From a virus: 64,000 nucleotides of DNA. The notes beneath the pieces were generated by a model. That model was given only the letters and a program-made list of their open reading frames with translations. It ran no database searches and had not been told where the DNA came from. Location of the stretch: positions 1 to 64,000 of the IMG/VR virus record IMGVR_UViG_3300031991_000011. One strand, 5' to 3'. Position 1 is the first letter of the stretch. Each line of letters starts with the position of its first letter. Positions 21,904-58,825 of the stretch are shown in pieces. Both the position numbers and the translations under genes were made by a program.

Positions 21904-22179
21904 TTAGATCAGCGGCGAGTTCGAGCCGATCACGCCGGCTTCGAGCGTGGCGAGACGAGCGCGCAGCGCGTCGAGTTCGGCCGCGACCGACCGCGTGGCC
22001 TGCGTCGAGTTCGAGTCGTTCGCGGTGTAGTCGATGTTCTCGGCGTTGAAGGTGCCTTGGCCGCCGAGCAGTTCGTCGATCATCTCGAAGCCGCGCTTGA
22101 CGGTGCGTTGCAGCGCGAAGATGCCGAGAACTTTGAGCGGCAACCCGAAGTTCGTGGTTTGGGGATCAGATACGGCCAT
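21904..22179 (-). CDS. hypothetical protein carrying a DSNS motif
   Basis: 91 aa; contains ANDSNSTQA encoded by the exact GAGTTCGAGTC 11-mer. Confidence 0.4.
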   Translation of the reverse strand: MAVSDPQTTNFGLPLKVLGIFALQRTVKRGFEMIDELLGGQGTFNAENIDYTANDSNSTQATRSVAAELDALRARLATLEAGVIGSNSPLI

Positions 22180-22260: not shown

Positions 22261-23100
22261 CTAGCTGAGAGCTTGGTCAAGAGGCTGCCAGGGTGCCTCG
22301 GGGATACCCGGTTGCGTTGCACGCACAACCTCGACTCCCATTCCGCGCAAGATCAAGCACATGGGCCCCAGCTTCGCGGCGAATTTCGCGTAGTTGCAGG
22401 TGTTCGTTTTGACCTTGTGCTTGTTGTGCCACTGCGCCTCGCCTTTCGGTCCAACCTGCATGTCGATCCCGAAGAGCACGATCTTCCGGGCTCCCAGAAC
22501 CCAGGCGAGGTTGGTGGCCTGCGTCCCACTGTCCCACCCATGCAATCGACGTCGATCTGTGTTGAACTTGTTCCGGTCTCGCCAGAAGCGCTTGAGCCGC
22601 GGGTGGTAGACCTCGCTCACGTCGCTCGTGGCTGTCGTGATGATCTTCGGCTCCTTCCACTCCTTGAGAACTTTGACGTGATTCCAGCGCCACCACGGGC
22701 AGTCTGCGAAGTGCAGGACTTCCGCCCACGGCGCGATCTCAAACGACTGGTTGACCGCGATGCAGCGGTGTCCCTTCGTCACGGAGATGTCGAACGTCTT
22801 CAAGCTCGGGCCGCCGCCGATGATGCAGACGATCTCGCCGTCGAACATGCGCGGCGCGTCCCACGGGACGATCCCGCGCGGCCCGTGCGGGTTGTGATTT
22901 TCAGGCACCACACGATCTCGATACGGGCGTCGCACCGGCGTGGGTGCGGCTTGTCTCGGTGGCGACGGAGGCGGGGGCAACGCCCGCTTGATCCGCGGCC
23001 TAGGGTCCGGCGGTGGTTGTGTCCGCTGCTTCCGAGCAAGTTCTGCCTGCTGCTGGCGTCGCTCGGCGAGACGCTGGCGCCAGGGCTTGCCGTCCTTCAT
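22261..23100 (-). CDS. Maf/DUF115-like putative glycosyltransferase
   Basis: IVCIIGGGPSLK ... CIAVN ... ATNLAWVLGARKIVLFGIDM resembles the Maf (PF01973-like) GNGPSL / VN signature; paralog of 51891..52505. Confidence 0.5.
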   Translation of the reverse strand: MKDGKPWRQRLAERRQQQAELARKQRTQPPPDPRPRIKRALPPPPSPPRQAAPTPVRRPYRDRVVPENHNPHGPRGIVPWDAPRMFDGEIVCIIGGGPSLKTFDISVTKGHRCIAVNQSFEIAPWAEVLHFADCPWWRWNHVKVLKEWKEPKIITTATSDVSEVYHPRLKRFWRDRNKFNTDRRRLHGWDSGTQATNLAWVLGARKIVLFGIDMQVGPKGEAQWHNKHKVKTNTCNYAKFAAKLGPMCLILRGMGVEVVRATQPGIPEAPWQPLDQALS

Positions 23101-25789: not shown

Positions 25790-26785
25790 TTAGGCGGGAT
25801 CGAGATCGCCGAACACATACCAGCGGTTCGCGACCGAGCCTTTCACGATGCTGATCACAGAACCGTAGCCGCGAGTGAGCGGCGTCATGTCGGCGGGATA
25901 GATCAACTCGACGAGACCCGGAGAGTTCGAGTCCTCGACCGCCACGATCTGCACCTGCATGTCGCCCATCTGCACGAAGCTGACGGTGTAGCCTTTCGGC
26001 AGTGACACGAGCGCTTCTTCCGGCACGCCGACCGAGATGGAGGTCGCCGTCGAGTTCGAGTTGTCTGTGACCTCGAAGAACGAGCGGTTCTGCGCGAGCG
26101 ACAACGTGAAGTCCGCGGTCACTGCGACCGGGAAGTTCATGCGGGCCTGCGCGTAGAGATCGTCGAGGGCGTCGCCGACCGTCGTCTGGATCGAGTTCGA
26201 GTCGCCTTCGTCGGCCGCGTCGTACAACAGGGTGTGCGCTTCTCCGACCGATCCGCTACCGCCGCCCGCGCCGAACGAGTTCGAGTCGTCGTCGCGGTTT
26301 TCGTAGACCAGGATGCGGGCAGCGAGCGAGTTGGTGCGGTGATAGAGGTCGTCGAGCGCGTCGCGGACGTTGGTCTCCTCGGAGTTCGAGTCGCCCTCGG
26401 CGTCGTAGGTCACATCGCCGGCGCCGATTGAAGAACCGGAGAGAGCCGTCCACACGCCGCCGGTGTAGCGGTAGCGGCCACCGTCAGCGACGACGTAGAC
26501 CTCCCACCCTTCGCCGGGCGTGTAATAGACCCATTCCTCCAGGCCCGTGTCGCCCTCCCACAGGATGATCGAGCCGGACGGCCCGCTGTTGGAGTCCTCG
26601 GCCGTGAGGATGTGGGCGTCGCCTGCGCTCGGGGTGTCGGGCAGCGACGAGACGCGCGAGAGCACCACCTTCGTGACGAGCAGCGAGAGCTTGCGCAAGT
26701 CCTCGCTTGCGCGGGTGCCCCAGCCGTCCTCGCCGACCGTGTAGAAGGCTCGAAGCCCGAGCCCAGGGAGATCACGCGCTGCCAT
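25790..26785 (-). CDS. tail fiber / structural protein with 5-6 DSNS motifs
   Basis: 331-aa ORF in the tail fiber region. Confidence 0.5.
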   Translation of the reverse strand: MAARDLPGLGLRAFYTVGEDGWGTRASEDLRKLSLLVTKVVLSRVSSLPDTPSAGDAHILTAEDSNSGPSGSIILWEGDTGLEEWVYYTPGEGWEVYVVADGGRYRYTGGVWTALSGSSIGAGDVTYDAEGDSNSEETNVRDALDDLYHRTNSLAARILVYENRDDDSNSFGAGGGSGSVGEAHTLLYDAADEGDSNSIQTTVGDALDDLYAQARMNFPVAVTADFTLSLAQNRSFFEVTDNSNSTATSISVGVPEEALVSLPKGYTVSFVQMGDMQVQIVAVEDSNSPGLVELIYPADMTPLTRGYGSVISIVKGSVANRWYVFGDLDPA

Positions 26786-26797
26786 TGCCTACGCTCC

Positions 26798-29503
26798 TTA
26801 AGCTCCACCGCCCCACGAATAGCCCCAGTTGAGGCCCCAGCCACCATAGCCGACGCGGACGTACAAGTCATATCCCTGCAAACTCTCGGTCGTGATGGCG
26901 CTGTTGCTGTCCTCGGAGTGCGCCTTCACGTTGATGCGGATGAGGTTCTTCCCCGAATATTCGTAGGGATCGAGCAGGTAGCTCTCGCCCGGAAGATCGA
27001 AGTGTTCCCCGAACATGGTCCCGGCCGCCGTGAAAAGCCGGACCACCGTTTTCACCGTGGTCGGCGGGGTGATCCCCGCCTCGGTCCACAGGAAGACGCG
27101 GGTCTCCTCCATGTCCCGGTTGCGGTTCGCCCACTCGACCGTGAGATCGCCGTCCGCCTCTGCGACGGCCACGAGATCAATCGGGGCACTCGGGTCCGAG
27201 TAACCGAAGCCGTTGATCCGCACGTTCGCCGGGCGGATCGGCCGGTTGGGCCGCAGATCGGCCGTGTAGACGATCTCAGGGGCGTCGTCGAGTTGGAGGG
27301 TGCCCAGGCTCGTCACCGGGAGAAGCTTATACTTGACCGTCTCTGCCTCAGCGCGGGCTATCGTGTCGCCGAAGGGAACGTCGGGCGAGATGAAGAACAC
27401 CTGCGTGCCGGCCGGCCATGCCCGAGGAACCGTGTCGAGCATGCCGCGCTCCACGATCCAGTTGTCGTTCGAGTCGAGATCGGACAGGAAGATGATCTCG
27501 CACTCGGCGTCGGGGTGCGAGGCATCCCCGATGTACGCGAAGCCCTCAAGCTCGGGGCCCACGCCGAGCGTGACGGCGCCGAACGCGATGATGCTCTGCG
27601 CCTCCTGCGCCAGCGGGTCTCCCAGGGTCGTGCGGCCGTTGAGGGTCTGGTTGCTGAGATTCTGATACTCGACCGACCCGCTGAGCGTCACGCCCTCGTT
27701 CCACAGTTCGTAGCGCGCGGTGTCCGTGCCGCCGGTGGATGCGAGAACCGCGGTGAACACTTCGGCGTCGTCGGGGAACGCCCCGGAGAACTGCGCGACC
27801 AGGAAGGCCGGCAAGGTGATCGGCTTCGTGTAGTCCATCGGCGCCGGGAACTCCGCGCCGATCTGGTGCTCGGTGTCCGGCGGCGCGAAGTAAGCGCCGA
27901 CGCGAAGGCCGAAGATGTCCTCCAGGAGCGAGACGCGAATCTTCGCTTCGCCGGTCTTACCGTAGTCCACGTTTCCGACGCGGAACACGACGTTCGAGAA
28001 TCCGAGCTTCGTGTTCGAGACCTTGATCACGCCACCGGGCACGGTGCTGTAGGCGCGTCGATCAACCTCGATGGTGCAGGACGCCAGCGGCGCGGCGGCC
28101 GTGCGCACGTCGCGTTGCGCGATGCGAGCGGCAAGGTCCGCGTTGCGAATGCCGTAATAGTTCCGGCTGTCGCTGACCACCCCGCCCTGCGAGATGACGT
28201 TGCCAAGCTCCTGCACGGAGACCGTGGCTTCGCTCTCGTTCAACGGGTTGGTGTAGGTGACGACGATCTCGTTGACCGTCTCGCCCCAGGACTTGCGCTG
28301 GAAGTCGAACAAACGGCAGTTCGACTCGTCATAGTGCGGCAGGGCGTCCACGTCGTAGTCGTCGCGCAGAAGCTTGATCGTGAACAGACCGGTCTCCGGG
28401 CTGACGAACGCCGTGGCCTGGATGTGGTCGAGGATTTCAGAAACGAACGTCTCGATGCTCGATTGCTGGAACCAGCCCAGCGAGAGACCGAAGCCTTCGT
28501 CGTAGAGCGTTTCTGCGGCGGACAGGAAGCTCGGAATGTCGAGAGCCGTTGCCGGCGCGCCCATGCCCCAATCGCTGTCGGTGAGACACTGGAAGATGAT
28601 GTGCGCAGGGTTCGCGTGCTCCAGGTTGTCCATGACGATGGTGGCGAGATCATCTGGCAACTCGGGCACGAGCACATCGTCCGTGACCATGGCCCAGAAG
28701 GCTTTCAGGTACGGGCTGTTGTGGCCCCAGTTGAAGCCCGAGAGGTTGGCGCCGGCAGTTCCGCGCGGGAAGAGAGCACCGAGTCGGCCGCCGTTGAAAC
28801 CGCCGGTGGGGTTCACGTTGATGGTCGCGACACCGATGATGTTGAACGCACCAGTGCCTTGCGACGTGATGTCCACGAACGGGCCTGCGGTCGCGTTCGC
28901 CTCCGACGTTGCGAACTTGATGTTCGCTTGCGTGGTTGTGCCGCCCTTCCCGCTGCGGCTTTCGCCGCTAATGTTGAGCCAGTAATCGACGCCGGCAGCG
29001 AGCCCGTCCGGCAGCGAGCCGGGCGACACAGCCTCCAACTGCACAGGGCCGTAGCCGGTTTCGATGTTGTAGGCGCTCTGCCAGGATGCGTTCACATGGT
29101 CGCCGGACACGCTGACGCGGGTGTTCGAGTAGACCGTCGTCGAGGCGTCTACGACTCCGGGCGAGGACGCGCCATAGAGGAACACGCTCGCGAGGCCGCG
29201 GAAGCCGGGGCACGTTGCGCTGCTTCGTCCGAGCCGCGATGCAAGATGCGACGGCATTACCTGCTCGGAGTCGCCGGGCAGGAAGGTGACGTTCCCGACA
29301 ACGCCGCCCTCTTTCGCAGGCCCGCCGAACAGGTCTGGCGAGTTCACCGGCACGTTCGCGAGCCCGGCGACGTTTCCGTTCCACACCGGCTTCTCGCCGA
29401 AGAACAACTGCCGCAAGCGCACCGGGCCGTGACAGATGCCGAAGTGAGTCGATAGCCGATACTCGGCCACCTTCATCTTCTGTTTGCCTTTGCCGCCGCC
29501 CAT
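26798..29503 (-). CDS. host-specificity (gpJ-like) central tail protein
   Basis: 901-aa protein at the end of the tail module; size and position typical of lambda J. Confidence 0.45.
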   Translation of the reverse strand: MGGGKGKQKMKVAEYRLSTHFGICHGPVRLRQLFFGEKPVWNGNVAGLANVPVNSPDLFGGPAKEGGVVGNVTFLPGDSEQVMPSHLASRLGRSSATCPGFRGLASVFLYGASSPGVVDASTTVYSNTRVSVSGDHVNASWQSAYNIETGYGPVQLEAVSPGSLPDGLAAGVDYWLNISGESRSGKGGTTTQANIKFATSEANATAGPFVDITSQGTGAFNIIGVATINVNPTGGFNGGRLGALFPRGTAGANLSGFNWGHNSPYLKAFWAMVTDDVLVPELPDDLATIVMDNLEHANPAHIIFQCLTDSDWGMGAPATALDIPSFLSAAETLYDEGFGLSLGWFQQSSIETFVSEILDHIQATAFVSPETGLFTIKLLRDDYDVDALPHYDESNCRLFDFQRKSWGETVNEIVVTYTNPLNESEATVSVQELGNVISQGGVVSDSRNYYGIRNADLAARIAQRDVRTAAAPLASCTIEVDRRAYSTVPGGVIKVSNTKLGFSNVVFRVGNVDYGKTGEAKIRVSLLEDIFGLRVGAYFAPPDTEHQIGAEFPAPMDYTKPITLPAFLVAQFSGAFPDDAEVFTAVLASTGGTDTARYELWNEGVTLSGSVEYQNLSNQTLNGRTTLGDPLAQEAQSIIAFGAVTLGVGPELEGFAYIGDASHPDAECEIIFLSDLDSNDNWIVERGMLDTVPRAWPAGTQVFFISPDVPFGDTIARAEAETVKYKLLPVTSLGTLQLDDAPEIVYTADLRPNRPIRPANVRINGFGYSDPSAPIDLVAVAEADGDLTVEWANRNRDMEETRVFLWTEAGITPPTTVKTVVRLFTAAGTMFGEHFDLPGESYLLDPYEYSGKNLIRINVKAHSEDSNSAITTESLQGYDLYVRVGYGGWGLNWGYSWGGGA

Positions 29504-29506
29504 GGC

Positions 29507-29964: not shown

Positions 29965-29973
29965 CTCAGAGCC

Positions 29974-30822
29974 TCAGTAGAACGTGTTGTAGAACGTGCC
30001 GAACGGGTGGTTGATCGGAATCCAGGGCTGCCCTCCGAAATTCAGGATGTTGTCGTGCAGGTCGCCACAGTCCGACATTTGGTGATTGCATCCGAGCGAA
30101 ATACGCACGGTCTGCGACGTGAGTCCAGTCGTGGGCCCGGTCATGTGAATCCGCGTCCCGCTCTCCACGTCGAGCACGGTGCGGATTTCCAGGTTGCCCT
30201 CGACCGTCGTCCACTCGATGACGCCGCCAGTGTACTTGTCGATCCTCGCGGGTGTGTCCCACCCTGCGGGCACGTCCACGTAGTTGCTGCCGATTGCGGT
30301 GGGGAGCACGGTGATCGTCGCGGCGCCGCGCGACGCCCTGCATTGCGTTCCGTAGAGAACGTGCGGGCACATGAACTGATAGTTCCGCCGCAGGCCGTTG
30401 CGCCGCATTGCAGTGACGATGGGCTCGCAAGAAAGTTCGCAGACGTGCGACCCGTCGCCGGCCTGCTTGCCGTTGAGCACTCGACCGGTCCACACCACGA
30501 CCCACTGCCGGTTGTCGTCGCTGAGATGCCCGCGGAATATCGTCAGCGTCACCGGATAGCTCGGCGGGTACGCGCGATAGAGTTGCGCGATCTCCGTCGA
30601 ACTCGGGAGTCGGACGACAAGCGTCTTCCGGTCAAGTGTTCCGCTGGATTGGATGTTGTCAGCCTCTACCGGAATTGGCGCGTAGACGCGGCTGTCGCGG
30701 ATGATCGGCTGCTCGGCGTTGGTGTAGGTGTAGATGGCCGTTGCCGCCAGCCCGTATCGGAACAGGAGCAGGTTGACCGGAACGGCGTCCTCGCGGGACT
30801 CTTCGCGTGATTGATAGCTCAT
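29974..30822 (-). CDS. tail protein
   Basis: ATG 30822 overlaps upstream stop (ATGA); rest of ORF 29974..30981 is GC-frame extension. Confidence 0.45.
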   Translation of the reverse strand: MSYQSREESREDAVPVNLLLFRYGLAATAIYTYTNAEQPIIRDSRVYAPIPVEADNIQSSGTLDRKTLVVRLPSSTEIAQLYRAYPPSYPVTLTIFRGHLSDDNRQWVVVWTGRVLNGKQAGDGSHVCELSCEPIVTAMRRNGLRRNYQFMCPHVLYGTQCRASRGAATITVLPTAIGSNYVDVPAGWDTPARIDKYTGGVIEWTTVEGNLEIRTVLDVESGTRIHMTGPTTGLTSQTVRISLGCNHQMSDCGDLHDNILNFGGQPWIPINHPFGTFYNTFY

Positions 30823-32628
30823 GACGTGCTCCCCGAGCCGCTTGCGCTGTCGCTGTTGCTGTCGTCGTCCGGCCCGTTGTAGGGCAGGGTTTCCATCGTG
30901 AGCGCCATCGTTGCAACGTCGCTGGTCTCCCAGCGGATCGTGAGCGTGTCGGTGGACATCCGCCAGAGCGGCATCCAGCAAACGTAGGCGATCTCGTCGA
31001 GGTCTGCGGTGACTCCCATCGGCTCGAAGAACTCGATGTAGCTGAAACCGCTCTCGCCGGTGATGTCGGAAATGCGCCGGTACAACACCGTGCCGTTGTT
31101 GAGGACGATTGCGACGCCGGCCGACGACCGTACCGCGTCTTGCACCCAGGCAACCGCGAAGTCGAGTCCGTCAATCCCGATGCGAGTGTCGAACTCATCG
31201 AACCCGTGCGCGAGAGGGATGTCGTCGCACCAAGTCGGCATGAAGAACTCGTGGCACCGACCGGCGCAGCGGAAGAAAAACTTCCGCAATTCGTCCGCGT
31301 CTTCCTGGTTCCGGCCGACATAGCTCAACGTGACACGCTGCGTGTGGTGCTCCACGTCTTGCAGGCGGTTGACCCGGCCGACGCCGAAGTCGATGAAGAC
31401 GGTCGGCTGCGCGTTGATCGCTTGCGCGCCTTCGGCCCAGTTCGGTTTGCGCAAGAAGACCTCACGCTGGTCGAAGAACACGCTCGGACTCGACGCCGGC
31501 TCGGCCGCCTCGAACCCCGGAACCGCCAGGAACTTCGCCGTGTAGGTCGCGACCGCGTTCGTCAGATACGTTCCGCTGATCTCGTCGGCCATCCACATGC
31601 GCAGCGCCGGGTAAATCTTAGTTCCGGCCGGCCACGCGAACTCGTCGTCCGATTTGTAGTTGACCGAGAACTCATCCGAGTTCGACTCGGTCCCGGTGTA
31701 AGGGCCGACCTTGCGCAACGAGATTTGGTCTCGGTGTTCAAGGATGACGTAGTTGTCCTCTTCCTTGAGCCACCACGGCGGCTCTTCTTCGAGGACCGAC
31801 ACGATGGCCTCCGCCGGCATGTCCGCCGCCGTTGTCGCGTATCGAGTTCTCTCGGGCACGTAGAACACGCCGCCTTGATTCGCCACCACGACCCGGTTGA
31901 GTTCGGAGCGGCTGACGCCGCGGAGCGCGACCGGCTGAGTGATAGTCTTGCGCGGCGTCTGCCGGTCCCGGATACGCTGCTCGGCCCCGTTCGCACTGGT
32001 GATGATGTTGGTCTTGAACTCGTACTCGATTTCGTAGGGTTGCGACCACTGCGGTTTGAACTCCCACACGAGGTCCGTCAGCGCAGGGACGCGGAAGCCC
32101 GTGACCGGAAGGAAGAACGTGTCGTCCGCAAAGTTGTCGGTGTCGAAGGTGAGCGTGAACAAGTCCGAGAGCACCGTCCCGCCATCGCCCTCTGCGGTGA
32201 ACGAGAAGAACTTGTACTCCAGGCCACGGAAGTTCGTCGGCAAGCCGCTGGCTTGGTCGAACACAACTTCGTCGCCGAAGTCCGGCGTCACCGTTTCGAG
32301 GGTGGTGTCGCCGAAGTATGCGTTCCAGATTCGGATCGAGATCGTCTTGTCCGCGGAGAAAGTTCCGAACGCGAGTGTTTCGACGTTGATGTAGATTCGG
32401 AAATAGAAGTCGTCGATCATCGAATACTGGCGAAGGCCGTCCTTCAACTCCCACGAGGTCTGCTGCATGTGGAAGTCGGTGTCGTGGCCGGCGTCGATGT
32501 CGTCCTCGCCCGCGTCCCAGGCGTGCGTGATCAAACCCGGAAGCACGAGGCCCGGAACACCCGTAGCCTCGTTGTTCGGGTAGGTGAAGCGCTCGTGAAG
32601 CGGAAGGATAACCCCTAGAGCCATCATG
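30819..32628 (-). CDS. tail protein (603 aa)
   Basis: ATG 32628 overlaps upstream TGA; C-terminal DDDSNSDSASGSGS tail. Confidence 0.45.
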
Positions 32629-33688
32629 CACCCAGAGAGTTGGAGTCTTCGACATCGACGGCGTAGGCATAGCCGACCCACAGCGAAGTCTCGTAGTCGC
32701 GGTAGGTGGAGCCAGAGCCCGTCCGTGTCATCGTCGATTCGCTTCGCCGCGAATGCGACGGGAAGCATCGATAGAGCTTACCGCCAACAATGATCTCTTG
32801 CTCGGGCGCGATGTCCTGCATGTTCACGAGGCGAACACCAGCCGGCCGCCCGATGGGGTGATAGATGGTGTCGCCGACGATTGACTCGCTGACATAGAGG
32901 TTGATCGGCACGAGGATGTTCTGACCCGAGAACGGGGACCGCGCTCGCGCGAGATAGCCGTCGTTGATCGAGTCCCCGTAACCGCCCAGGCAAACCTCGT
33001 CAGGCATAGCCGCGTGCGGCGTGAGGTCGCTCGTGCCTCGGAATTGAATCCACTCCGCCGCAAGCTCTGCGTGCTGGACGTGGACGCCGCCCGTGTTGAG
33101 GTTGCCCGTCTTCCGGCCGCTTCGGCCTTGGAAGAGGTACTTCATGGATGAATAGTCTTTGAACCCAATAGAGGACGACGCGCTTCCTTGCGGCCCGTCC
33201 GTCGCGGAGATGACCTCGCCGCCTTCGTAGTTCCCGATCTTCTCCATGTTCCCGATATACATGTGACGGTAATAAGCGCCCGACTGCACCACGATTGCGA
33301 TGTACGGGCGCGGGCTGAGCGACCCGATCAAGTGAAGGTCTGTCGGGACTTGCGCAACACCGGGGTTCCCGATGATGGGCATGACGAAATCCGCATAACT
33401 GAGGATCGCGTTGTTCACCAGGGAGTTCGAGTTCGCGTCGGGCTCGTAAGACTGCACGACGAGTTGGTGAAACACGCTCGCGACCGACGCCGACACGCGC
33501 CACATGATCGCGTCGTCCGTGAACAACAGAGAGTTCGAGGTCGAGTTCGACCCAAAGCCCTGCGGGTTTCGGATGATCGGCTGTGTCGGCGTGGACAAGT
33601 CCGTCTCGAAGCCGAGGCTCGCGGCGAACGTACCGACGAGGGCCGGCACGTCCGTGATCGCGGTGATGGTGTGGTGTTCGTAGGCCAT
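32624..33688 (-). CDS. tail protein with C-terminal EDSNSLGA
   Basis: 354-aa ORF in the tail module. Confidence 0.45.
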   Translation of the reverse strand: MAYEHHTITAITDVPALVGTFAASLGFETDLSTPTQPIIRNPQGFGSNSTSNSLLFTDDAIMWRVSASVASVFHQLVVQSYEPDANSNSLVNNAILSYADFVMPIIGNPGVAQVPTDLHLIGSLSPRPYIAIVVQSGAYYRHMYIGNMEKIGNYEGGEVISATDGPQGSASSSIGFKDYSSMKYLFQGRSGRKTGNLNTGGVHVQHAELAAEWIQFRGTSDLTPHAAMPDEVCLGGYGDSINDGYLARARSPFSGQNILVPINLYVSESIVGDTIYHPIGRPAGVRLVNMQDIAPEQEIIVGGKLYRCFPSHSRRSESTMTRTGSGSTYRDYETSLWVGYAYAVDVEDSNSLGA

Positions 33689-34737
33689 TAGCTGTTGGAC
33701 TCCTCGCTGGAGATGAACGCTGAGTTCGAGTCTTCCGGCCCGAGCGTGACGGCGTACCAGTTTCCGAGCGCGGTGCGGAACGTGTTCTGAAACACGATGT
33801 GCACTGCGTTGTCCGCCTGAATTACATTCTCGATGCTCTGCCCACGTCCCGTGATTCGATAGACGCCATCCAGGGCTCCGAAGGTTTGATCTTGCGGTGA
33901 TGCTTGCGTCAGTGTGAACGGGGTCAGCGCGAAGCCCGCGCCGTAGCTCTCGCCCTGTCGAATATCCACGGAATTGTAGCCGTAGTTGTCAGAGTCAAAG
34001 TCTCTGTCGATGTGTGCGCCGATCCCCAGGCCCATCCCGAAATATGAGGGTCCAATGTAGGCGTTCGATGCCGTGGTGTTGGTAGAGCAGCGCAGCCACG
34101 CGCCGTCCGGCCCGAGCATCCAGGCGCTCGGGTTGTAGCCCGTCGCAGGGTTGCTGTCGTAATTCGAGAACATGTAGGCCGTGTGATCGTCGCGAACACT
34201 AGACCACGAGGACGCCTCGCTCGGGCCGCCGCTGCCGCTCGAACCACCGATGAACATCGGGTAGGTGTAGACCTCGGGGTCTGCGTAGGGGAGGAAGAAG
34301 CCGGCGTACAGCGTTTCATAGACCGTGCCGATCTGCACGACGACGATGAACCGGCGGCCGTTGGCGACAAACCAATAGTCCATCGAGTTCGGGCGCAGGA
34401 ACATCTTCACCGGGTTCGGGGTCACGTTGACGTGCAGGTGATATTGATCGGCGCTGTTGATGACCCCGGTCGCGCCGCGCATGTAAATCGTGCTCAGGTC
34501 GCTCGCAACGTCGTCAACACGACGAAGCGCGACGTAGATGCTGTCCTGGTCTGCGAGTCCGGGGCCGCGCAACACGATGTCCGTGTCGTTCGGGTTCCCG
34601 GAGTTCGAATCGTCCGCGAGCCAAGCCACTTCCCAGTTTTGATTGAGCGCGACAAGTTGCGCGTCGGTCGTGAGGAACGCGAGCAGCTTGTTCCACAAAT
34701 CCTCGTGGTCCGAGGCGGTGCCGGTTTGATAAGCCAT
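33688..34737 (-). CDS. distal tail protein with C-terminal EDSNSAFISSEESNS
   Basis: 349 aa immediately downstream of the tape measure. Confidence 0.45.
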   Translation of the reverse strand: MAYQTGTASDHEDLWNKLLAFLTTDAQLVALNQNWEVAWLADDSNSGNPNDTDIVLRGPGLADQDSIYVALRRVDDVASDLSTIYMRGATGVINSADQYHLHVNVTPNPVKMFLRPNSMDYWFVANGRRFIVVVQIGTVYETLYAGFFLPYADPEVYTYPMFIGGSSGSGGPSEASSWSSVRDDHTAYMFSNYDSNPATGYNPSAWMLGPDGAWLRCSTNTTASNAYIGPSYFGMGLGIGAHIDRDFDSDNYGYNSVDIRQGESYGAGFALTPFTLTQASPQDQTFGALDGVYRITGRGQSIENVIQADNAVHIVFQNTFRTALGNWYAVTLGPEDSNSAFISSEESNS

Positions 34738-40519: not shown

Positions 40520-41365
40520 TTAGGTGTACGCGGGCCGCTTGTCCATGTAGATCGCTTCCCGGTCGGTGCGCTTGAGCACTTCGATGGTGAAGGGGATCGA
40601 CTGCCACTCGTCGGCCTTGAGGTTGTAGTCGCCGTTCGGCGACACCTTGACCCACGGGAAGTAGTAATCGATGTCGTCGCCCGCCGGGTTGAACGCGATG
40701 TAGCGCATCGCGCCTTCGACCGGCTGCGAGCCCGAGATGACGCGCGTGTAGGTGGACGCGCGGATCGAGTAATCGACTTCGAGTTGCGTGCCGTTCGCGA
40801 TGCCGCCGCCGATGACGACGTACAGGCGACCGAGTTCGTAGTCGATGGTGTAGTCGGTGCCTTCGACATAGGCTTCGACCAGCGAGTTCGAGTTGTCGCG
40901 GTCGTAGACCACCGGGTTGACGCCGCCCGAGTTCGACGTGTCAGGGCCACCAGCGATGCCCTTGGCGCCGGCGGGCCGCGTGGTCGAAACGCCGAGTTGA
41001 TAGTGATAGCCCTGCGTGACGCCGTTGGTCGCGGCGAGAACTTCGTTGGTGATCGCGCCACCGGCCTCGACGATGCTCGACGCCGAGCCGAAGAAGAACA
41101 GCGCAACGTTCTCGGGATCGATGTCGTCGCAGACCATCGAGCCGGTGCGGTTGACTTGGAGAGCAATGCTCTCGTCCTTCTCGCGAATGCCGTGGTCAGA
41201 CGAGAAGTGATCGAGCACTTCCTGCTCGATGGTCAGCGAGAACTCGGGGGTGTTCCCGATGTAGCGTTCGTCGGGCGCGTCGAACGTGCCGGTGACGAAC
41301 CGCGCAAAGTGGACTTCGCCGCGGCCCAGCGTGTAGTTGGCCGTCTTGGTCGCTTGGGTAGCCAT
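40520..41365 (-). CDS. major tail protein
   Basis: 281 aa, position upstream of the chaperone pair; contains DTSNSGG and DNSNSLVE. Confidence 0.5.
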   Translation of the reverse strand: MATQATKTANYTLGRGEVHFARFVTGTFDAPDERYIGNTPEFSLTIEQEVLDHFSSDHGIREKDESIALQVNRTGSMVCDDIDPENVALFFFGSASSIVEAGGAITNEVLAATNGVTQGYHYQLGVSTTRPAGAKGIAGGPDTSNSGGVNPVVYDRDNSNSLVEAYVEGTDYTIDYELGRLYVVIGGGIANGTQLEVDYSIRASTYTRVISGSQPVEGAMRYIAFNPAGDDIDYYFPWVKVSPNGDYNLKADEWQSIPFTIEVLKRTDREAIYMDKRPAYT

Positions 41366-41488: not shown

Positions 41489-42058
41489 TCAGTCGTAAGG
41501 TCGTTCCAGGTCTTCCACCAGTTTGATCGTGACCTGGAGCCAGAAGTATGCCTTCCCCGAGATTTCGTCCGGCGGCCGGCACACCGGGCTCCCGATGATT
41601 ATGTCGGTCACGGCACCCTTGCCGTTTGCCCCATAGACACCCAGCAACGGCGTCATCACACGGCCGTATCGTTTCCGTTCTGCGGCGGGTCGTTCTTTCT
41701 CCGCTGCGAGTGCCATGATCACGTCGGCCGCCAGGAGGTAGGCGGGATCAGTGGGGTTGATCTTGTCTTCCTTGCAGAAGCCTTGGATCGAGATGTCCCA
41801 CGGGCCGCTAGATTCCTGCGACTCCTCGGGCGGCGGAATCTGATCGTTCGCAATCGGCGTCTCCAGGATTGCGATCATCGGCACGGGGTCGCCGTCGCCG
41901 AAGAGGTTTCGTCCGCGGAAGACGCGCCCTGAGAGATCGTTCTGATACTGCGGCGCGTCGGGCGCACTGTTGCTGTCAACCGAGATCGCTTCGAGCAGCG
42001 AGGTCAGCGCCATCATGACACGAAGCCGAAGCGGGTATTGCCATGTCGTCGTCATCAC
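41489..42058 (-). CDS. tail completion / head-tail protein
   Basis: 189-aa ORF in the head-tail region; contains VDSNSAPD. Confidence 0.4.
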   Translation of the reverse strand: MMTTTWQYPLRLRVMMALTSLLEAISVDSNSAPDAPQYQNDLSGRVFRGRNLFGDGDPVPMIAILETPIANDQIPPPEESQESSGPWDISIQGFCKEDKINPTDPAYLLAADVIMALAAEKERPAAERKRYGRVMTPLLGVYGANGKGAVTDIIIGSPVCRPPDEISGKAYFWLQVTIKLVEDLERPYD

Positions 42059-42660
42059 AAGCCCTCGACCTTCATCTGGCGCAAGAACTCGCGCTCCAGC
42101 GCGGACGCCACGTCATCTTCTATCTCCACCCATATGCCCTGGCGTTCGTCTCGGTGCAACAGAGCTTGTGACACGCTCGGGCCGTAGAGGGACCACAGAT
42201 TCTTGCCGATCTTCCGCGGCCGGAACGCGCCGGTTGGCTTCGTCGGCGAGCGAACCGCGAGCAGCGTGTTCTCGCCGCCGGCCCGGCCCGAGACCGAGAG
42301 CAAGAAGGCGCCGGGCAGAGAACGCACGCCGCCGGGCGCGACCTCGACCTTCACTTTGCCTTTGCCGCGCGCACTGCCGCTGACGAAGCGAGCCAGGGAT
42401 CGCGGATCGCTCGACGCTGAGAGTCGGCCCTCAAGGCGGCCCGCCGACGCCGGCCGCAGTGCGATCTTTCCATCTTGGCTCACCAGATAGCGGGCCGGGA
42501 AGTTCACCTGCTGGCGGAGCAGCCTCGACGACTGCGTGCGCGAGTTTCGGAGGATTTGATTGATGGCGCGGGACGCGATCTGCGCCGTCTGGCGCGGCAG
42601 CGACTCCAGGTCATCGAGCGAACGCAGTCCGCGAATCGTGACGGTGAACTCGTTTGCCAT
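42055..42660 (-). CDS. head-tail joining / minor tail protein
   Basis: 201-aa ORF with ATGA-type coupling. Confidence 0.4.
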   Translation of the reverse strand: MANEFTVTIRGLRSLDDLESLPRQTAQIASRAINQILRNSRTQSSRLLRQQVNFPARYLVSQDGKIALRPASAGRLEGRLSASSDPRSLARFVSGSARGKGKVKVEVAPGGVRSLPGAFLLSVSGRAGGENTLLAVRSPTKPTGAFRPRKIGKNLWSLYGPSVSQALLHRDERQGIWVEIEDDVASALEREFLRQMKVEGL

Positions 42661-43076
42661 TATTCATCCTCGGGCACCGGGAGCCCGGCAGCGTCGGCAG
42701 CGTCGAGCCGCGTGATGCGCGCCTTGATGGTTTCCTGGTCGTGTGGCTCGATCACGTCGAGCGAATACGCCTCGCCGACGCCGAGCGAGATGACTGCGTT
42801 GCGCACCAGTGTGATGCCTTTTTCCGTCAGTTCGCTGCGCCAGAAGATCGCTTGCGGGATAGGCTCGAACCGCTCGGCGCTGTTCAAGCTCGTGCCGGCT
42901 TGGTCGCCGAGCTTCGTCTGGTTCTCGTGGACCCTGACTTCAAGTTCGGGGATGTCACCGGCCGAGTTCGAGCCGGCCTCGACATACGGGATGCCATCGG
43001 CGAGATAGAGGCAGCGCGTCTTCATCGTCTGGTGGACGACGTTCCGCGCTGCCCGCTTGGTGTCTCGCCAGGACAT
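42660..43076 (-). CDS. head-tail connector protein
   Basis: 138-aa ORF. Confidence 0.4.
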   Translation of the reverse strand: MSWRDTKRAARNVVHQTMKTRCLYLADGIPYVEAGSNSAGDIPELEVRVHENQTKLGDQAGTSLNSAERFEPIPQAIFWRSELTEKGITLVRNAVISLGVGEAYSLDVIEPHDQETIKARITRLDAADAAGLPVPEDE

Positions 43077-43519: not shown

Positions 43520-44614
43520 TCAGGGTGCCGAGTTCGAGTCTTCCAGAACCACTCGGGCGTGGAACGTCCGGTTGGGCTGGGTAAGAATCGGGAGCGGCGC
43601 GGATTGCGTCATGATGTTGAGGGCGGACGGGTCTTCCGCTTCCCACATCTTCGGGAACACCGCTTGCGGGCGCAGGCCGGCCTTCGCGTCGAGGATGGCG
43701 CCGAAGGCCATGACACCGCCGACATCGGGGGTGGAGATCACGAGATCGCGGGGATTCATGATGTCCACTTGGACGCCGCTGTTGTCCACGTAGAAGTCCT
43801 CGTAGAGGACGAACGTGAGATTGCCGTTGGTGCCGCTCAGCGTGCCCACAACCTGCCAGGGCTGGTCGGGGGTGCTGGACGCGATCAGCGCACGGGCGAT
43901 GCTGTTGCCTTCGCCGCCGCGAACGTTCGTGTCCATGAGTTCGAGCAGCGAAGTGTTCTTGCGCATCACGCGCCAGACTTCGCGGCCGAGAGTCACGACC
44001 GAGCCACGGCCGCCGCGTTCGGCGTTCGCCATCGCGTCGAGATATTCCTGGAACGCAGCCACGATGTCCGTGCTGGTCGTCCAGAAGCCGCTCGACTTGA
44101 TGTCTTCCAGCGCCGTGTCGCGGGCGTAGTCAACTTGCTGCGTCGGGCCGTCCTCGTACTCGACGAGAACCTTGCCGTAGATCATGGCCTGGGCGGCCAT
44201 GACTTCCCAGCGGCGCTCGATGATGTTGCGGTGATGGCGCAGGATCGCCTCGACCTCGGCGTCCCAGTTCTGGGCCGGCGTGCGCGGGGTATCGTCGAAC
44301 AGGTTGCCCGGCCGGCGGGTGAACTGCTCGGACGGGATCACCGGGTCGCGCGGCTTGATATAGGCCGGCGTGAAGCTCTTCGCCTTCGAGCCGCGACGCC
44401 GATAGGACGGCTTGCCGGGGACGGACGGCAGAACGAACGCAGCGACCTCGCGCGAGAAGTCGTTGATCTCCTCGAAGATGATCGACTGGCGATCCGACTG
44501 GAACACGTTGTTCGTGAACCCGCCGAGGTTGCGCCAATAGTTCGTGACCGTCTCCAGCCGCTGGTCGCGGTAGACGCCGAGCAGGGCTCGGGGGGAGATG
44601 ATTTCCAGAGACAT
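43520..44614 (-). CDS. major capsid protein (lambda gpE-like position)
   Basis: 364 aa downstream of the decoration and protease genes; C-terminal VVLEDSNSAP. Confidence 0.55.
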   Translation of the reverse strand: MSLEIISPRALLGVYRDQRLETVTNYWRNLGGFTNNVFQSDRQSIIFEEINDFSREVAAFVLPSVPGKPSYRRRGSKAKSFTPAYIKPRDPVIPSEQFTRRPGNLFDDTPRTPAQNWDAEVEAILRHHRNIIERRWEVMAAQAMIYGKVLVEYEDGPTQQVDYARDTALEDIKSSGFWTTSTDIVAAFQEYLDAMANAERGGRGSVVTLGREVWRVMRKNTSLLELMDTNVRGGEGNSIARALIASSTPDQPWQVVGTLSGTNGNLTFVLYEDFYVDNSGVQVDIMNPRDLVISTPDVGGVMAFGAILDAKAGLRPQAVFPKMWEAEDPSALNIMTQSAPLPILTQPNRTFHARVVLEDSNSAP

Positions 44615-51136: not shown

Positions 51137-51898
51137 CTATCCCCAGAATTTCTCAACCCACGGGGAGAGTTCGCGGATTCTGGGGAGCCACGGGGAGTGC
51201 GGCCCGTTCATCTGAATCAGCCTCGCTCCCGAAGGGAGCGGCCCGCCGGTCGGCTCGTGCTTGAGCGGCCCTATGAGGTTCCGCTGCACCCACGACTCGT
51301 AGGCCCACTCGTTGCGCGGCCGAATGTCGTCGCGGTAGCAGAACAGCCCGTCGTCGCGTGTGATCTTGGTGATCTTGTCGTTGGCCTTGATGGCGATCCA
51401 CGCTTGATCGCTGCCGCCGTACCGGAGCCCTCGACCCTTCACGTTGGCTTGCCAGCGTGCGCGGCTGTACTCGGTGTAGATTTCCGGGGCCACGCCGTGA
51501 TCCGCGATCACGAGCGAGCCGTTCACCGGCTGAGGCGGAAGCTCGACGCCCGACATCAAGAAGGGCTCGGTGCGCGTGAAGATCGGCGTGATGTCGTCCA
51601 CAGCCACCATGTCGATGTCCAACCAAGCCCAGCGCGGCTCGGGGATGATCTGGCGGAAGCTCGGGTCGAAACACTTGAGCCTGACGAGACACTTCCCCTC
51701 CGCCCGCAACTCCGACCACAGCGGGACGACTTGGGCTTGGTCTTTGAAGTGCTCTCGCGTTTCTTTTGAATCGGAGATGACGACGAACCGGTGTGGTGCG
51801 CGCAGAAAGCGTTTCACCATGTCCATCGTGCGCTGGAGATATTGGTCTGGGAACTTGTTCCCCCACGACCACAGGATGATTGGCAGGGCGCTACTCAC
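51137..51898 (-). CDS. putative glycosyltransferase (DxD-containing)
   Basis: 253 aa; WLDIDMVAVDD DxD-like motif; last gene of a 4-gene coupled operon. Confidence 0.35.
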   Translation of the reverse strand: MSSALPIILWSWGNKFPDQYLQRTMDMVKRFLRAPHRFVVISDSKETREHFKDQAQVVPLWSELRAEGKCLVRLKCFDPSFRQIIPEPRWAWLDIDMVAVDDITPIFTRTEPFLMSGVELPPQPVNGSLVIADHGVAPEIYTEYSRARWQANVKGRGLRYGGSDQAWIAIKANDKITKITRDDGLFCYRDDIRPRNEWAYESWVQRNLIGPLKHEPTGGPLPSGARLIQMNGPHSPWLPRIRELSPWVEKFWG

Positions 51899-52505
51899 GT
51901 TCTTTTCCTTCCGGTAAAAAGGGGAACTCTTTCACTGCGGATTTCGGGTTGAGGTTGAACACTTGCACGCCCAGGCGACGGAAGTCGCGCGGGAGTCTGC
52001 TATACCCCCACCGCTGCCTCTCGTATCGCATGTGCCAGTCTTCCTTGTGCTCGCCGACGAAATACTTCGTCCCGTCTGGCGCCGCTTTTCCATCGACGCC
52101 GATGAGCAAGACTTTTCGGGCACCGCGCAGCACCGCGTAGTTGATAGCCAGGGCCGTCGTCGTGAAGGAGCCTCGCAGTTCGCGTGGGTTCTCGGAGAGG
52201 CCGCCGCCGGCCACCTTCGGGATGAACTCGATTCGCGAGTCGAACAGTTTCTCGGGCAACGGCACCGGGTCTGTGTAGAGGATCAACGGCCCGAGGTACT
52301 GTGACAGGTCTGGGTTCCGGCGCGCGTAGCGGTGGTCTCCGATCAGGAGCACGTCGGCACTCGGCACCGCGTGATACCCATCCTTCACAGCGATTGTTTT
52401 GAGCTCTTTGATTCGACGAAATTTGAACTCCGCGACGCTCGGACCCGAGGCCACGATGGCGACGACCTCGCCAACCCAATCGCGAGGAACGACATGGCTC
52501 TTCAT
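51891..52505 (-). CDS. Maf/DUF115-like putative glycosyltransferase
   Basis: VVAIVASGPSV ... IAVKDGY ... TTTALAINYAVLRGARKVLLIGVDGK; paralog of 22261..23100; ATG 52505 overlaps upstream stop. Confidence 0.5.
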   Translation of the reverse strand: MKSHVVPRDWVGEVVAIVASGPSVAEFKFRRIKELKTIAVKDGYHAVPSADVLLIGDHRYARRNPDLSQYLGPLILYTDPVPLPEKLFDSRIEFIPKVAGGGLSENPRELRGSFTTTALAINYAVLRGARKVLLIGVDGKAAPDGTKYFVGEHKEDWHMRYERQRWGYSRLPRDFRRLGVQVFNLNPKSAVKEFPFLPEGKERE

Positions 52506-53086
52506 CACGCGGCGTCGGCGACCTGGACTTTCGGACGCACCAGCACCGCAAGCTCGATCCCGACACGGGCCGGCTTGATCGGATCGACCTCGACGATCTC
52601 GCCGAAGTGCACGGCGAGCCGTTTCATCCACCATGGGGTGGGTTTGACGATCAGGTGGGCGTTGCGGCCGTCTGCGAGGCGTTTGTTCGCAAGACGCTGG
52701 GAGATCACCAGGAGGCCGCGCTTGTTGATCAGCGAGGCGATATGCGCGAGCACGTTGTCGAGCAGTTCGGGTTCGATGTGTTCGAGCACGTCGTTGCACG
52801 TCAAGAAGTCAGCCGGCTCGGGCATCTTCGGCATCGTCACCGGGTCGTAGCCCGCGCAAGTAATGCACTCGGAGGCAGGGCCCTTGGAGCGAGTGCGCTC
52901 TTCGATCTCGCGAAGCAAGTTGCCCTTGCCGCAGCCGTAGTCGAGGTACGACCCCGGCGGAAGGCCCTCGTCCGCCATGTAGCCGAGAACGCGGTCGGTC
53001 CAGGCGTCGCCCTTGCCGCCGTACTTCTTGTTGCGGCTGTGAAGCTCTGCGTTGAGGGCGCGGTAACTGTCGCTGATCAGCTTCAT
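52505..53086 (-). CDS. class I SAM-dependent methyltransferase
   Basis: motif I LDYGCGKGNL, post-I acidic residue, motif II DVLEH; ATG 53086. Confidence 0.65.
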   Translation of the reverse strand: MKLISDSYRALNAELHSRNKKYGGKGDAWTDRVLGYMADEGLPPGSYLDYGCGKGNLLREIEERTRSKGPASECITCAGYDPVTMPKMPEPADFLTCNDVLEHIEPELLDNVLAHIASLINKRGLLVISQRLANKRLADGRNAHLIVKPTPWWMKRLAVHFGEIVEVDPIKPARVGIELAVLVRPKVQVADAA

Positions 53087-53766
53087 TGTCCTTGCCTCGC
53101 TCTGATCTCGGCCAGGGCATGCACCCAGAGGTCGCCGAAGCGAACCCCTTTGTGATTGGTGTGCCACGGGCCGCCGTTGGTGAAGTGGATCGCCGCGGGA
53201 GTCGTGTCGTCGTGCGGCCAGTCGTATTCGCCTTCGAGCCAGTTCCACTCCTGGGGAAGCTCGCCGATTTTCTCTTCGGCCCACACGAAGCGGTGTAGAA
53301 TTTGAGGGTCGGCGTCGTTGACGAATTGCGGGGTGAGACGCCGGCAGCGCTCGTTGTTGAAGACCATGAGCGAGGACCAGTTCTTCCGCGGGTAGGCGAC
53401 TTGCGGGTGCCCGTCCATCTTCCATTTTGCCTTCGGCACATAGTCGTGCTTCACGACGTTCACGAACGCGCCTGGATCGACGTGGCGGCCGAGTTGGAGG
53501 ATATCGCGGGTGAAGAGGAAGTCGCAGTCCACGAACAACGCCTGACCTGCGTAGTTGCACAGGTGCGGCACGAGGAACCGAGTGTGCGCGAACTCGGTGG
53601 ACGCCGGTTCGTCCTCGGGCCGCGTGTAGAGGCCGCGGGCGCGGAGCCGGTCTTGCTTGAGCGCCGTGATGGCCAGGGGCACAGACGAGTGCTTCCGCAG
53701 CGAATCGGCACAGACCTCGTAGGCGTCTGGCTCGCGGCTGTCGTAGCCTATGAACACTCTCAGCAT
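53083..53766 (-). CDS. GT-A fold glycosyltransferase
   Basis: 227 aa; FVDCDF DxD motif in a nucleotide-sugar transferase-like context. Confidence 0.45.
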   Translation of the reverse strand: MLRVFIGYDSREPDAYEVCADSLRKHSSVPLAITALKQDRLRARGLYTRPEDEPASTEFAHTRFLVPHLCNYAGQALFVDCDFLFTRDILQLGRHVDPGAFVNVVKHDYVPKAKWKMDGHPQVAYPRKNWSSLMVFNNERCRRLTPQFVNDADPQILHRFVWAEEKIGELPQEWNWLEGEYDWPHDDTTPAAIHFTNGGPWHTNHKGVRFGDLWVHALAEIRARQGQ

Positions 53767-58740: not shown

Positions 58741-58825
58741 CTTACAGTCTCCAGTTTGCGGTTTTACGGTTTCAGTCCCTTTCGGGATTCGCACCATCAG
58801 CCCGTGCGTCGGCCTTGTCAACGGG

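Follow-up and report, generated by a model that had tools for sequence, protein, structure and literature searches.

The window, by which we mean the whole 64,000-nucleotide stretch that was analysed (positions 1 to 64,000 of IMG/VR virus record IMGVR_UViG_3300031991_000011), carries four overlapping minus-strand genes, A to D, between the SNF2 helicase gene and the small terminase gene, and a fifth gene, E, beside a tail fibre gene (Table 1). All five open reading frames were present at the tabulated coordinates on the minus strand, and their third-position GC of 0.74–0.83 matches that of real genes of this 63% GC genome. The junctions, read from the sequence, showed that A and B have a common ATGA (B start at 53086, A stop at 53083–53085), that B and C overlap by 1 nt in a TGATG at 52505, and that C and D overlap by 8 nt (GTGAGTAG), with GTG at 51898 as the start codon of D. 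A gap of 26 nt containing a GAGGG Shine-Dalgarno-like site separates the SNF2 stop from the A start; between the D stop and the small terminase start the gap is 14 nt. The A–D operon showed no internal promoter-like or terminator-like site on the minus strand. The first-pass annotation had described a translationally coupled four-gene operon between terminase and replication genes, and this gene anatomy is now shown, with both the reading frames and the overlaps confirmed. The operon lies at the replication/packaging boundary, outside the structural module; the five enzymes and the head and tail genes belong to one common minus-strand gene block. Transmembrane-like segments were not seen in A, B, C, D or E, so all five products appear to be soluble.

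Table 1. Enzyme genes and tag-bearing virion-module genes of the window.
Feature	Position	Strand	Size or basis
Gene A, GT8-like DxD glycosyltransferase	53083..53766	-	227 aa, soluble
Gene B, class I SAM-dependent methyltransferase	52505..53086	-	193 aa
Gene C, single-domain Maf-fold (MptE-like/DUF115, sialyltransferase-like) protein	51891..52505	-	204 aa
Gene D, GT8-fold DxD glycosyltransferase, rare family	51137..51898	-	253 aa
Lambda gpD-like head decoration protein, two DSNS in inserted loop	44654..45109	-	Pfam HDPD
Major capsid protein, lambda gpE type, end ...VVLEDSNSAP	43520..44614	-	Pfam Phage_cap_E 2.7e-42
Head-tail module protein, GSNS variant tag	42660..43076	-	Tag scan
Head-tail or tail protein, DSNS at residue 28, kept in relatives	41489..42058	-	
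Probable tail tube protein, two xSNS variants (TSNSG, NSNSL)	40520..41365	-	Homologues with UCP028589 match
Distal tail protein, two DSNS and C-terminal ESNS	33688..34737	-	
Distal tail protein, end ...VEDSNSLGA, plus three xSNS	32624..33688	-	
Tail protein, DSNS 10 residues before C-terminus	30819..32768	-	Weak DUF2460 match
Phage-tail_3 (gpJ-like) central tail protein, one DSNS	26798..29503	-	
DUF2793 tail fibre-like protein, five DSNS and one NSNS	25790..26785	-	
Glycine-rich tail fibre, two DSNS, one VSNS, C-terminus ...PESSNSP	23097..25778	-	
Gene E, Maf-fold paralog of C, Pro-rich N-terminal extension	22261..23100	-	279 aa
Small protein downstream of E, DSNS and near-C-terminal GSNS	21904..22179	-	91 aa

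The earlier reading of A as a GT-A-like DxD transferase, of B as a class I SAM methyltransferase and of D as a further DxD protein held in each case, with support of different kinds. B is a class I SAM methyltransferase, matching Pfam Methyltransf_23 (E-value 1.9e-14, 54.2 bits) over the 27-bit cut-off and phrog_24759 'methyltransferase' at 2.2e-23; its motif I (GxGxG) reads DYGCGKG, and its motifs are of the small-molecule type, not the DNA methyltransferase type. A matched Pfam Glyco_transf_8 (PF01501) weakly (E-value 1.3e-3, 18.8 bits), under the 24.3-bit curated cut-off, and phrog_28018 at 1.7e-58. More than 3600 homologues of A were found, several with a precomputed PF01501 match, and D80-C-D82 is invariant. 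Its closest cellular homologues carry the name lipopolysaccharide glycosyltransferases, and one bacterial homologue adjoins dTDP-rhamnose synthesis genes (RmlA/B/C/D-type Pfam matches), GT4-type glycosyltransferase genes and a capsule synthesis gene. D gave no sequence-family match, PF01501 included; its D94-I-D96 is invariant. The GT8 membership test was met for the fold (a GT-A fold nearest to GT8 structures) and, in both A and D, for the conserved DxD metal and nucleotide-sugar binding motif, and it was failed by both for a sequence match over the curated cut-off. Structure matches to D in BFVD included uncultured-phage proteins of 685–700 aa named MptE-like and one 714-aa protein named methyltransferase-domain protein. 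These matches suggest that a D-like fold is joined, in some phage proteins, to an MptE-like (Maf-type) domain or to a methyltransferase domain. Homology between A and D is not claimed, since an hhalign profile comparison of the two DxD proteins gave a probability of 2%. Neither A, D and E themselves nor the A profile found a match when searched against PDB sequences, and an NCBIfam search of A–E returned nothing useful.

C and E are paralogous (29% identity, E-value 8e-16), and both matched phrog_4603 'alpha-2,3-sialyltransferase' (8.5e-14 for C, 9.8e-31 for E). C had been called Maf/DUF115-like in the first-pass annotation, and this held at the level of fold and motif: matches of C and E to MptE-like/DUF115 (PF01973) were weak, at 14.6 and 26.5 bits respectively, under the 34.6-bit curated cut-off, and one C orthologue (P0055) carries a precomputed PF01973 match. 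The fold of the C/E catalytic core is sialyltransferase-like, as in the Maf central domain, and with the GxGPS and GxD motifs present the corresponding membership test was met. This fold is also common to pyrophosphokinases; the best structural match was Maf, ranking above the pyrophosphokinases, and it is with Maf that the GxGPS and GxD motifs align. The profile of C searched against the PDB yielded only sub-threshold motif matches to 5mu5. The three-domain test for Maf (at least about 600 aa, including an N-terminal Rossmann-like domain and a helical one at the C-terminus), an architecture described in PMC11339370, was failed by both proteins. C is the central domain alone, and E adds just the Pro-rich extension. 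No flagellin or CMP-nonulosonic-acid synthesis genes were found among the window proteins scanned, and a nonulosonic acid as the sugar, as earlier proposed, rests on analogy with Maf only. The placing of a second Maf-like paralog beside the tail fibre gene held as well: the E start ATG overlaps the TGA of the fibre gene (ccATGA), giving start/stop coupling, and the product of that fibre gene ends in ...SSNSP. Orthologues of E with 56–62% identity lie in the tail modules of the DSNS-rich relatives L212 and L213.

The tetrapeptide DSNS, noted earlier as a recurring tag, is real and far beyond chance. It is the commonest tetrapeptide of the proteome, with 17 occurrences observed against 0.12 expected (~140-fold), a count reached in none of 2000 shuffles. 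The virion module (8,451 aa) has 29 copies of the SNS core, and the non-structural proteins (9,922 aa) have none. Within the virion module the 2,928 aa of interior and assembly proteins (the gpW-like protein, portal, protease/scaffold, tape measure and chaperones) contained none, and all 29 fell in the remaining 5,523 aa. The 17 tags are encoded by ten different 12-mers that use both serine codon families. This indicates selection on the peptide, not on the DNA, and for the same reason a DNA-level repeat was rejected as the origin of the tags. The consensus is (E/D)-D-S-N-S-(A/G), with S-N-S as the core. Among 79 distinct contexts of the tag, 20 are no more than 12 residues away from a C-terminus and four are ...DSNS-stop; the residue after DSNS (Asn +2) is A in 24, G in 17 and T in 7.

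At least 12 proteins of the virion module carry tags, among them the fibres and the decoration protein (Table 1). Alignment placed the tag pair of the decoration protein within an insertion of ~15 residues that is missing in cassette-less relatives, and showed the tag of the major capsid protein to be a C-terminal extension likewise missing in those relatives.

In the loci of the cassette-bearing clade we counted 85 DSNS in 47,312 aa. A further 108 related loci, among them syntenic relatives in which nothing A–D-like was found up to 10 kb from the large terminase gene, gave 5 in 438,291 aa. The tail regions of relatives were reached by alignment walking; locus searches queried by E alone or by a 901-aa tail protein alone found no relatives. 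Tags and cassette thus co-occur in one clade, and both are missing from syntenic relatives. Because the tagged, cassette-bearing phages form one clade only, their co-occurrence is essentially a single evolutionary event, and co-inheritance is possible. A scan of IMG/VR with a degenerate DNA pattern for paired tags recovered same-clade members only, plus one low-complexity repeat. The present phage lineage has alphaproteobacterial affinities.

Related cassettes were found inside or beside the structural modules of unrelated phages. The one in Tetraselmis viridis virus S20 lies among head genes, flanked by those for the maturation protease and for head closure, that of L205 lies between the probable capsid and connector genes, and that of Caulobacter phage CcrSC comes directly after the tail fibre genes. 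There was no DSNS in the whole S20 genome, in the tail/cassette region of CcrSC or in the region of podovirus MW202512, and the two DSNS in L205 do not amount to an enrichment. The tag is therefore clade-specific, and no independent replicate of the link between tag and enzymes was found.

The closest known likeness of function is in mycobacteriophages, which glycosylate capsid and tail tube subunits via their own glycosyltransferases (PMC12363180, PMC12619734), with Che8, Corndog and Myrna as examples (Freeman et al. 2023, cited in both). In both cases the particles are of siphovirus type, and the phage presumably encodes the glycosyltransferases that decorate its own capsid and tail proteins; the mycobacteriophage glycans are reported at the C-termini of the capsid and tail tube subunits. 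The first-pass remark that such a system would be unusual for a siphovirus is weakened by these phages. The present phage differs from them in host phylum, as its affinities are alphaproteobacterial, in its enzyme set (Maf-fold, GT8-type and methyltransferase; enzyme homology between the two was not tested) and in its defined four-residue tag over this many virion-module proteins. In the A064R protein of chlorovirus PBCV-1, two glycosyltransferases, one of them of the DXD type, are joined to a class I SAM methyltransferase, which adds O-methyl groups to the capsid glycan (PMC9614988). That virus is a eukaryotic giant virus whose glycan is N-linked at NTXT or NIPG sites (A064R, A061L; PMC9614988), and the domains are fused in a single protein without a Maf-fold component, unlike the separate genes here. 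Compared to the Maf transferases of nonulosonic acid to flagellin (PF01973 MAF_flag10; 5mu5), C and E at 204 and 279 aa are without the Maf N- and C-terminal domains, score under the Pfam cut-off and are not set among flagellar or nonulosonic-acid synthesis genes; a short sequon is not known for Maf proteins.

The tags resemble the PglB sequon (D/E-X-N-X-S/T) in being a short motif with an acidic residue two positions before Asn on many different proteins, and the reaction would resemble that of NGT/HMW1C (N-X-S/T) in being cytoplasmic with soluble enzymes. In contrast to these systems, Asn +2 is in most cases occupied by A or G instead of S/T, some tags finish at N-S-stop, and no oligosaccharyltransferase or GT41 homologue is present. 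The classical sequon D/E-X-N-X-S/T was rejected for the tags on the grounds of the mostly A/G residue at Asn +2 and the four DSNS-stop tags. Literature text searches for DSNS in phages and for phage sequon glycosylation returned nothing relevant.

On balance, and with moderate confidence, we favour tag-directed cytoplasmic glycosylation, probably with methylation, of exposed virion proteins by the phage enzymes; there is neither biochemical evidence nor an isolate. The virion glycosylation and methylation proposed in the first-pass annotation are supported by the comparative data, without biochemical proof, because tags and cassette co-occur in the clade and exposed virion proteins carry the tags as insertions or as C-terminal extensions. 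In this view, the exposed proteins (capsid, decoration, tail tube, distal tail and fibres) would carry short encoded tags in inserted loops or at C-termini, and one enzyme would read the tag and put the first sugar on a tag residue, with an O-link to Ser favoured and an Asn link possible. The remaining enzymes would lengthen the glycan, and B would methylate it. A and D, as GT8-type DxD transferases, would use nucleotide sugars, and the stand-alone Maf-fold C and E may, by analogy, use ulosonic acids supplied by the host in CMP-activated form, for example pseudaminic acid or Kdo. That the tags are acceptor sites is inferred, as are the enzyme order, the sugars and the methyl target, all without biochemical evidence. 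Several observations speak against this reading: related cassettes elsewhere come without DSNS enrichment and the tagged phages are one clade only; C and E score under the MptE-like cut-off and have a fold in common with pyrophosphokinases; and the GT8 assignment of A is weak by sequence, with the operon outside the structural module. Phage GT-A enzymes can also glycosylate DNA (bioRxiv 10.1101/2023.12.21.572611).

During infection the cassette might instead make or alter a glycan on the host surface (LPS, capsule or flagellin), for instance to block superinfection or to change receptors, with DSNS as an unrelated trait of the virion proteins. The lipopolysaccharide glycosyltransferase names of the closest cellular homologues of A, the dTDP-rhamnose, GT4-type and capsule genes beside one of them, the modification of flagellin by true Maf proteins (PMC11339370) and the possible co-inheritance of tags and cassette in a single clade are all compatible with this. 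We nevertheless consider it unlikely: all five products are soluble, with neither a flippase nor a polymerase nor a membrane partner of the Gtr type seen, recurring cassettes within structural modules and the coupling of E to the fibre gene would be unexpected, and the ~140-fold tag enrichment limited to exposed virion proteins would be left unexplained. The tags could also be functional without being glycan acceptors, as metal-binding or adhesive patches, succinimide- or isopeptide-prone cross-linking sites or targets of host enzymes, and C and E could then be pyrophosphokinase-like. Asn-Ser and Asp-Ser are hot-spots of deamidation and isomerisation in general protein chemistry, and other cassette-bearing phages lack DSNS. 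This too seems improbable, as Maf outranks the kinases structurally and the GxGPS and GxD motifs align to it, the tags co-occur with two clear glycosyltransferase-type proteins, and ...DSNS-stop tags are easier to explain as an appendage recognised by an enzyme than as a structural metal site.

Least likely, and in our view remote, is that the cassette hypermodifies phage DNA with sugars for restriction evasion, like other phage GT-A/GT-B enzymes. For it, the operon directly follows the replication genes (DNA polymerase, a VRR-NUC-like gene and the SNF2 helicase), the window contains a nucleotide-metabolism block, and phage GT-A enzymes that are similar to LPS transferases and to PBCV-1 A064R add sugars, even Kdo, to 5-hydroxymethylcytosine (bioRxiv 10.1101/2023.12.21.572611). 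The same work describes a DNA sugar-hypermodification cluster as a glycosyltransferase beside a C5-cytosine methyltransferase and a 5mC dioxygenase, or beside a thymidylate-synthase-like hydroxymethylase. The cassette fails this criterion: neither the window proteins scanned nor the records for the 3.7 kb beyond the window start yielded a C5-cytosine methyltransferase, a TET/JBP-type dioxygenase or a thymidylate-synthase-like hydroxymethylase. The small-molecule type of the B motifs also speaks against this alternative, as do the related cassettes within structural modules, and the co-variation of the tags is left unexplained.

A bolder form of the glycosylation reading is possible. DSNS, or its SNS core, would be a minimal portable sequon served by soluble cytoplasmic machinery; the stand-alone Maf-fold C or E would initiate by placing a host-derived ulosonic acid or other sugar on a defined Ser or Asn, and the GT8-type enzymes and the methyltransferase would finish the glycan. 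If so, C or E would be the first sequon-specific member of the Maf fold, every exposed virion protein could be coated just by encoding a four-residue tag, and the system could be transferred to other proteins as a genetically encoded glyco-tag.

In the literature we searched, experimental proof of virion glycosylation by phage-encoded enzymes is confined to mycobacteriophages. Tag-directed glycosylation, if true, would extend the phenomenon to phages with alphaproteobacterial affinities and a different enzyme set. It would also provide a short, countable peptide tag that predicts both the modified proteins and the sites, which was unreported for phages in that literature. Thanks to the tag, a reporter that carries it and five small soluble enzymes would allow a direct test of the hypothesis, and the system may offer a compact cytoplasmic glyco-tagging tool. 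The tags would serve as a sequence-only means to map the exposed virion surface, and a testable function would be available for the many cassettes of Maf-like 'sialyltransferase', methyltransferase and glycosyltransferase genes in the structural modules of other phages.

The four overlapping minus-strand genes A–D, which the first-pass annotation had read as a translationally coupled operon of putative sugar-transfer enzymes, were present as described. They lie between the SNF2 helicase and small terminase genes in a window of 63% GC, whose minus strand runs from replication through packaging and head to tail genes. Third-position GC of the four ORFs was high, as in real genes. Their junctions are ATGA, TGATG and GTGAGTAG overlaps, and no promoter-like or terminator-like sites were found within the operon on the coding strand. 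The annotation's claim of a Maf-like paralog beside the tail fibre gene also held: E and C are true paralogs (29% identical, E-value 8e-16), and the ATG start of E shares bases with the stop codon of the glycine-rich fibre gene. This gene anatomy and the folds of the products are shown.

Features of the window and of two comparison phages
Feature	Position	Strand	Assignment or remark
A	53083-53766	-	GT8-like DxD transferase
B	52505-53086	-	class I SAM methyltransferase
C	51891-52505	-	Maf-fold protein
D	51137-51898	-	GT8-fold DxD transferase
E	22261-23100	-	Maf-fold protein
SNF2 helicase gene	53793-55256		operon flank
Small terminase gene	50511-51122		operon flank
Tail fibre gene	23097-25778	-	glycine-rich
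Nucleotide-metabolism block	13008-15400 and 18456-19914	+	
MazG-like pyrophosphohydrolase	13008-13529	+	
dCMP deaminase	13526-13993	+	
Diphosphohydrolase-domain protein	14621-15400	+	dATP/dGTP type, N-terminal domain
MT-A70 DNA methyltransferase	18456-19151	+	
HD-type deoxynucleotidase	19318-19914	+	weak match
Replication set	61260-63779; 2245-3219	+	
Replication set	58826-60103; 57961-58821	-	
Overlap of tail ORFs 30819-32768 and 29974-30981	30819-30981	-	163 nt
Overlap of tail ORFs 32624-33688 and 30819-32768	32624-32768	-	145 nt
Caulobacter phage CcrSC (NC_048048.2) cluster	118481-122967		six genes
Tetraselmis viridis virus S20 (NC_020840.1) cassette	26950-32533		nine genes

B matched Methyltransf_23 at 54 bits against a cut-off of 27. 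A gave a weak GT8 match with an invariant D-C-D; its family exceeds 3600 proteins, with GT8 matches recorded for some, and a homologue in a methylotrophic alphaproteobacterium adjoins genes for dTDP-rhamnose synthesis together with other glycosyltransferase and capsule genes. D had no sequence-family match, and only 37 homologues were found among 5.8 billion proteins. None of the five proteins A–E contains a transmembrane-like segment. As a separate observation, the N-terminal region of the tail fibre matches the ALK/LTK glycine-rich domain (PF12810, E 7.7e-7), which is unusual for a phage fibre.

DSNS was the commonest tetrapeptide among the 65 predicted proteins of the window, occurring 17 times against 0.12 expected (no shuffle in 2000 came near), and every copy fell within ten virion-module proteins. 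Of the SNS core, the virion module (8,451 aa) contained 29 copies and the non-structural proteins (9,922 aa) none. Within the module, the interior or assembly proteins (2,928 aa: gpW-like protein, portal, protease/scaffold, 1580-aa tape measure and chaperones) lacked it too, and 12 of the remaining 17 proteins had at least one copy. Ten different 12-mers using both serine codon families encode the tags, which indicates that the constraint acts on the peptide. Among 79 distinct contexts across the whole clade, the preceding residue was E, D or N in 51 and the following one A or G in 41; 20 tags lay within 12 residues of the C-terminus and four formed it. These statistics are shown; that the tags are acceptor sites is inferred. 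The classical D/E-X-N-X-S/T sequon was rejected since the tags do not meet it, a mismatch that favours O-linkage to serine or non-canonical linkage to Asn.

With the large terminase, the tail tube protein and one distal tail protein as probes, homologous loci were gathered from IMG/VR and further assemblies. The A-B-C-D core was present in every fully covered SNF2-to-small-terminase interval (eight relatives examined), in some accompanied by a further methyltransferase and an additional ORF. DSNS density was 85 in 47,312 aa for clade loci and 5 in 438,291 aa for 108 other related loci; the latter include syntenic relatives (~50% terminase identity) in which no A–D-like genes were found within 10 kb of the terminase gene. 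Alignments place both tags of the lambda gpD-like decoration protein within a ~15-residue insertion and show the capsid tag to be a C-terminal extension, each absent from cassette-less homologues. Tag positions vary between clade members and one cassette-bearing relative lacks the capsid tag, so gain and loss of tags is ongoing. Two DSNS-rich relatives, one of them a contig shown to bear the cassette, have E orthologues in their tail modules. Two more distant tail-module relatives (IMG/VR contigs 3300046460_000148 and 3300046648_000141) carry an E-like gene (25-31% identity) but no DSNS. The co-variation is shown. Its main weakness is that the tagged phages form one clade, and the co-occurrence counts as a single evolutionary event.

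We lean, by a modest margin, towards cytoplasmic, tag-directed glycosylation of exposed virion proteins. One enzyme would recognise the tag and add the first sugar, the remaining transferases would lengthen the glycan, and B would methylate it. A and D would draw on host nucleotide sugars and C and E, by analogy with Maf, on CMP-activated ulosonic acids; the sugars that Maf enzymes can transfer extend beyond their native ones to Neu5Ac or Kdo (PMC11339370; bioRxiv 10.1101/2020.06.03.131540). Enzyme order, acceptor atom, sugars and methyl target are all inferred.

Remodelling of host-surface glycans by the cassette would agree with A's cellular relatives, but is at odds with the soluble enzymes, the structural-module context and the tags, and we consider it unlikely. 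Sugar hypermodification of DNA, a real alternative for phage GT-A enzymes, appears more improbable still, as the window proteins scanned yielded no partner of the cytosine methyltransferase, dioxygenase or hydroxymethylase kind. That the tags have a non-glycan role, or that C and E are kinase-like enzymes, cannot be excluded, though we doubt either. The nucleotide-metabolism block may hint at dNTP-pool manipulation or a non-canonical base; neither a PurZ-like gene nor one for a hydroxymethylase turned up among the scanned proteins.

Elsewhere in the window, the replication set includes a primase-polymerase/VapE-like protein, a DUF2800 protein, an Enc34-type ssDNA-binding protein and an ATP-dependent DNA ligase. 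Third-position GC is lower in ORFs of the first ~3.7 kb. The ORFs of the large and small terminases share ~100 nt and tail ORFs also overlap; the true starts of these ORFs probably lie downstream of those given by the longest reading frames.

Structural modules of unrelated phages repeatedly contain or adjoin cassettes that combine Maf-like and methyltransferase genes with D-like or A-like ones. In Caulobacter giant phages they directly follow the tail fibre genes. The CcrSC cluster, with tail fibre genes on one side and an endolysin gene on the other, encodes a Maf-like 'sialyltransferase', three unnamed proteins (one A-like), a methyltransferase and one further unnamed protein; it could be a cassette for modifying the virion whose acceptor motif is another one, as yet unrecognised. 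In S20, whose genome is typical of a tailed phage, the cassette lies among head genes, between those for the maturation protease and head closure; it comprises two glycosyltransferase genes (one of them D-like), two 'sialyltransferase' genes, a methyltransferase gene and four ORFs without a name. The cassette of L205, an HK97-like phage contig, is flanked by a probable capsid gene and a connector gene, and in many IMG/VR contigs one precedes the tail tube gene by a few kb. No DSNS enrichment was found in the other cassette-bearing phages checked, including CcrSC, S20 and L205, and a paired-tag pattern scan matched only the same clade. A BFVD structure search found the D-like fold in MptE-like-named proteins of uncultured phages (685-700 aa) and in one 714-aa protein named for a methyltransferase domain. 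In the BFVD entries A0A6J7XC21, A0A6J5PVH5 and A0A6J7X5Q0 (uncultured Caudovirales, 685-714 aa, with MptE-like or methyltransferase-domain names), this GT-A fold covers only part of the length. These proteins likely represent natural fusions of activities encoded separately in the window; inferred from names and a partial fold match, they might tie D-like and MptE-like/methyltransferase activities to one pathway.

The window system would work like virion glycosylation in mycobacteriophages (cited in PMC12363180, PMC12619734) and capsid glycosylation in chloroviruses (PMC9614988), where the single protein A064R combines two glycosyltransferases, one of them of DXD type, with a glycan O-methyltransferase. 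It differs from both in enzyme families and host affinity, and in having a defined four-residue tag on at least 12 virion-module proteins. We consider its interest high because a tagged reporter together with the five enzymes, all small and soluble, would allow a direct test of the hypothesis.
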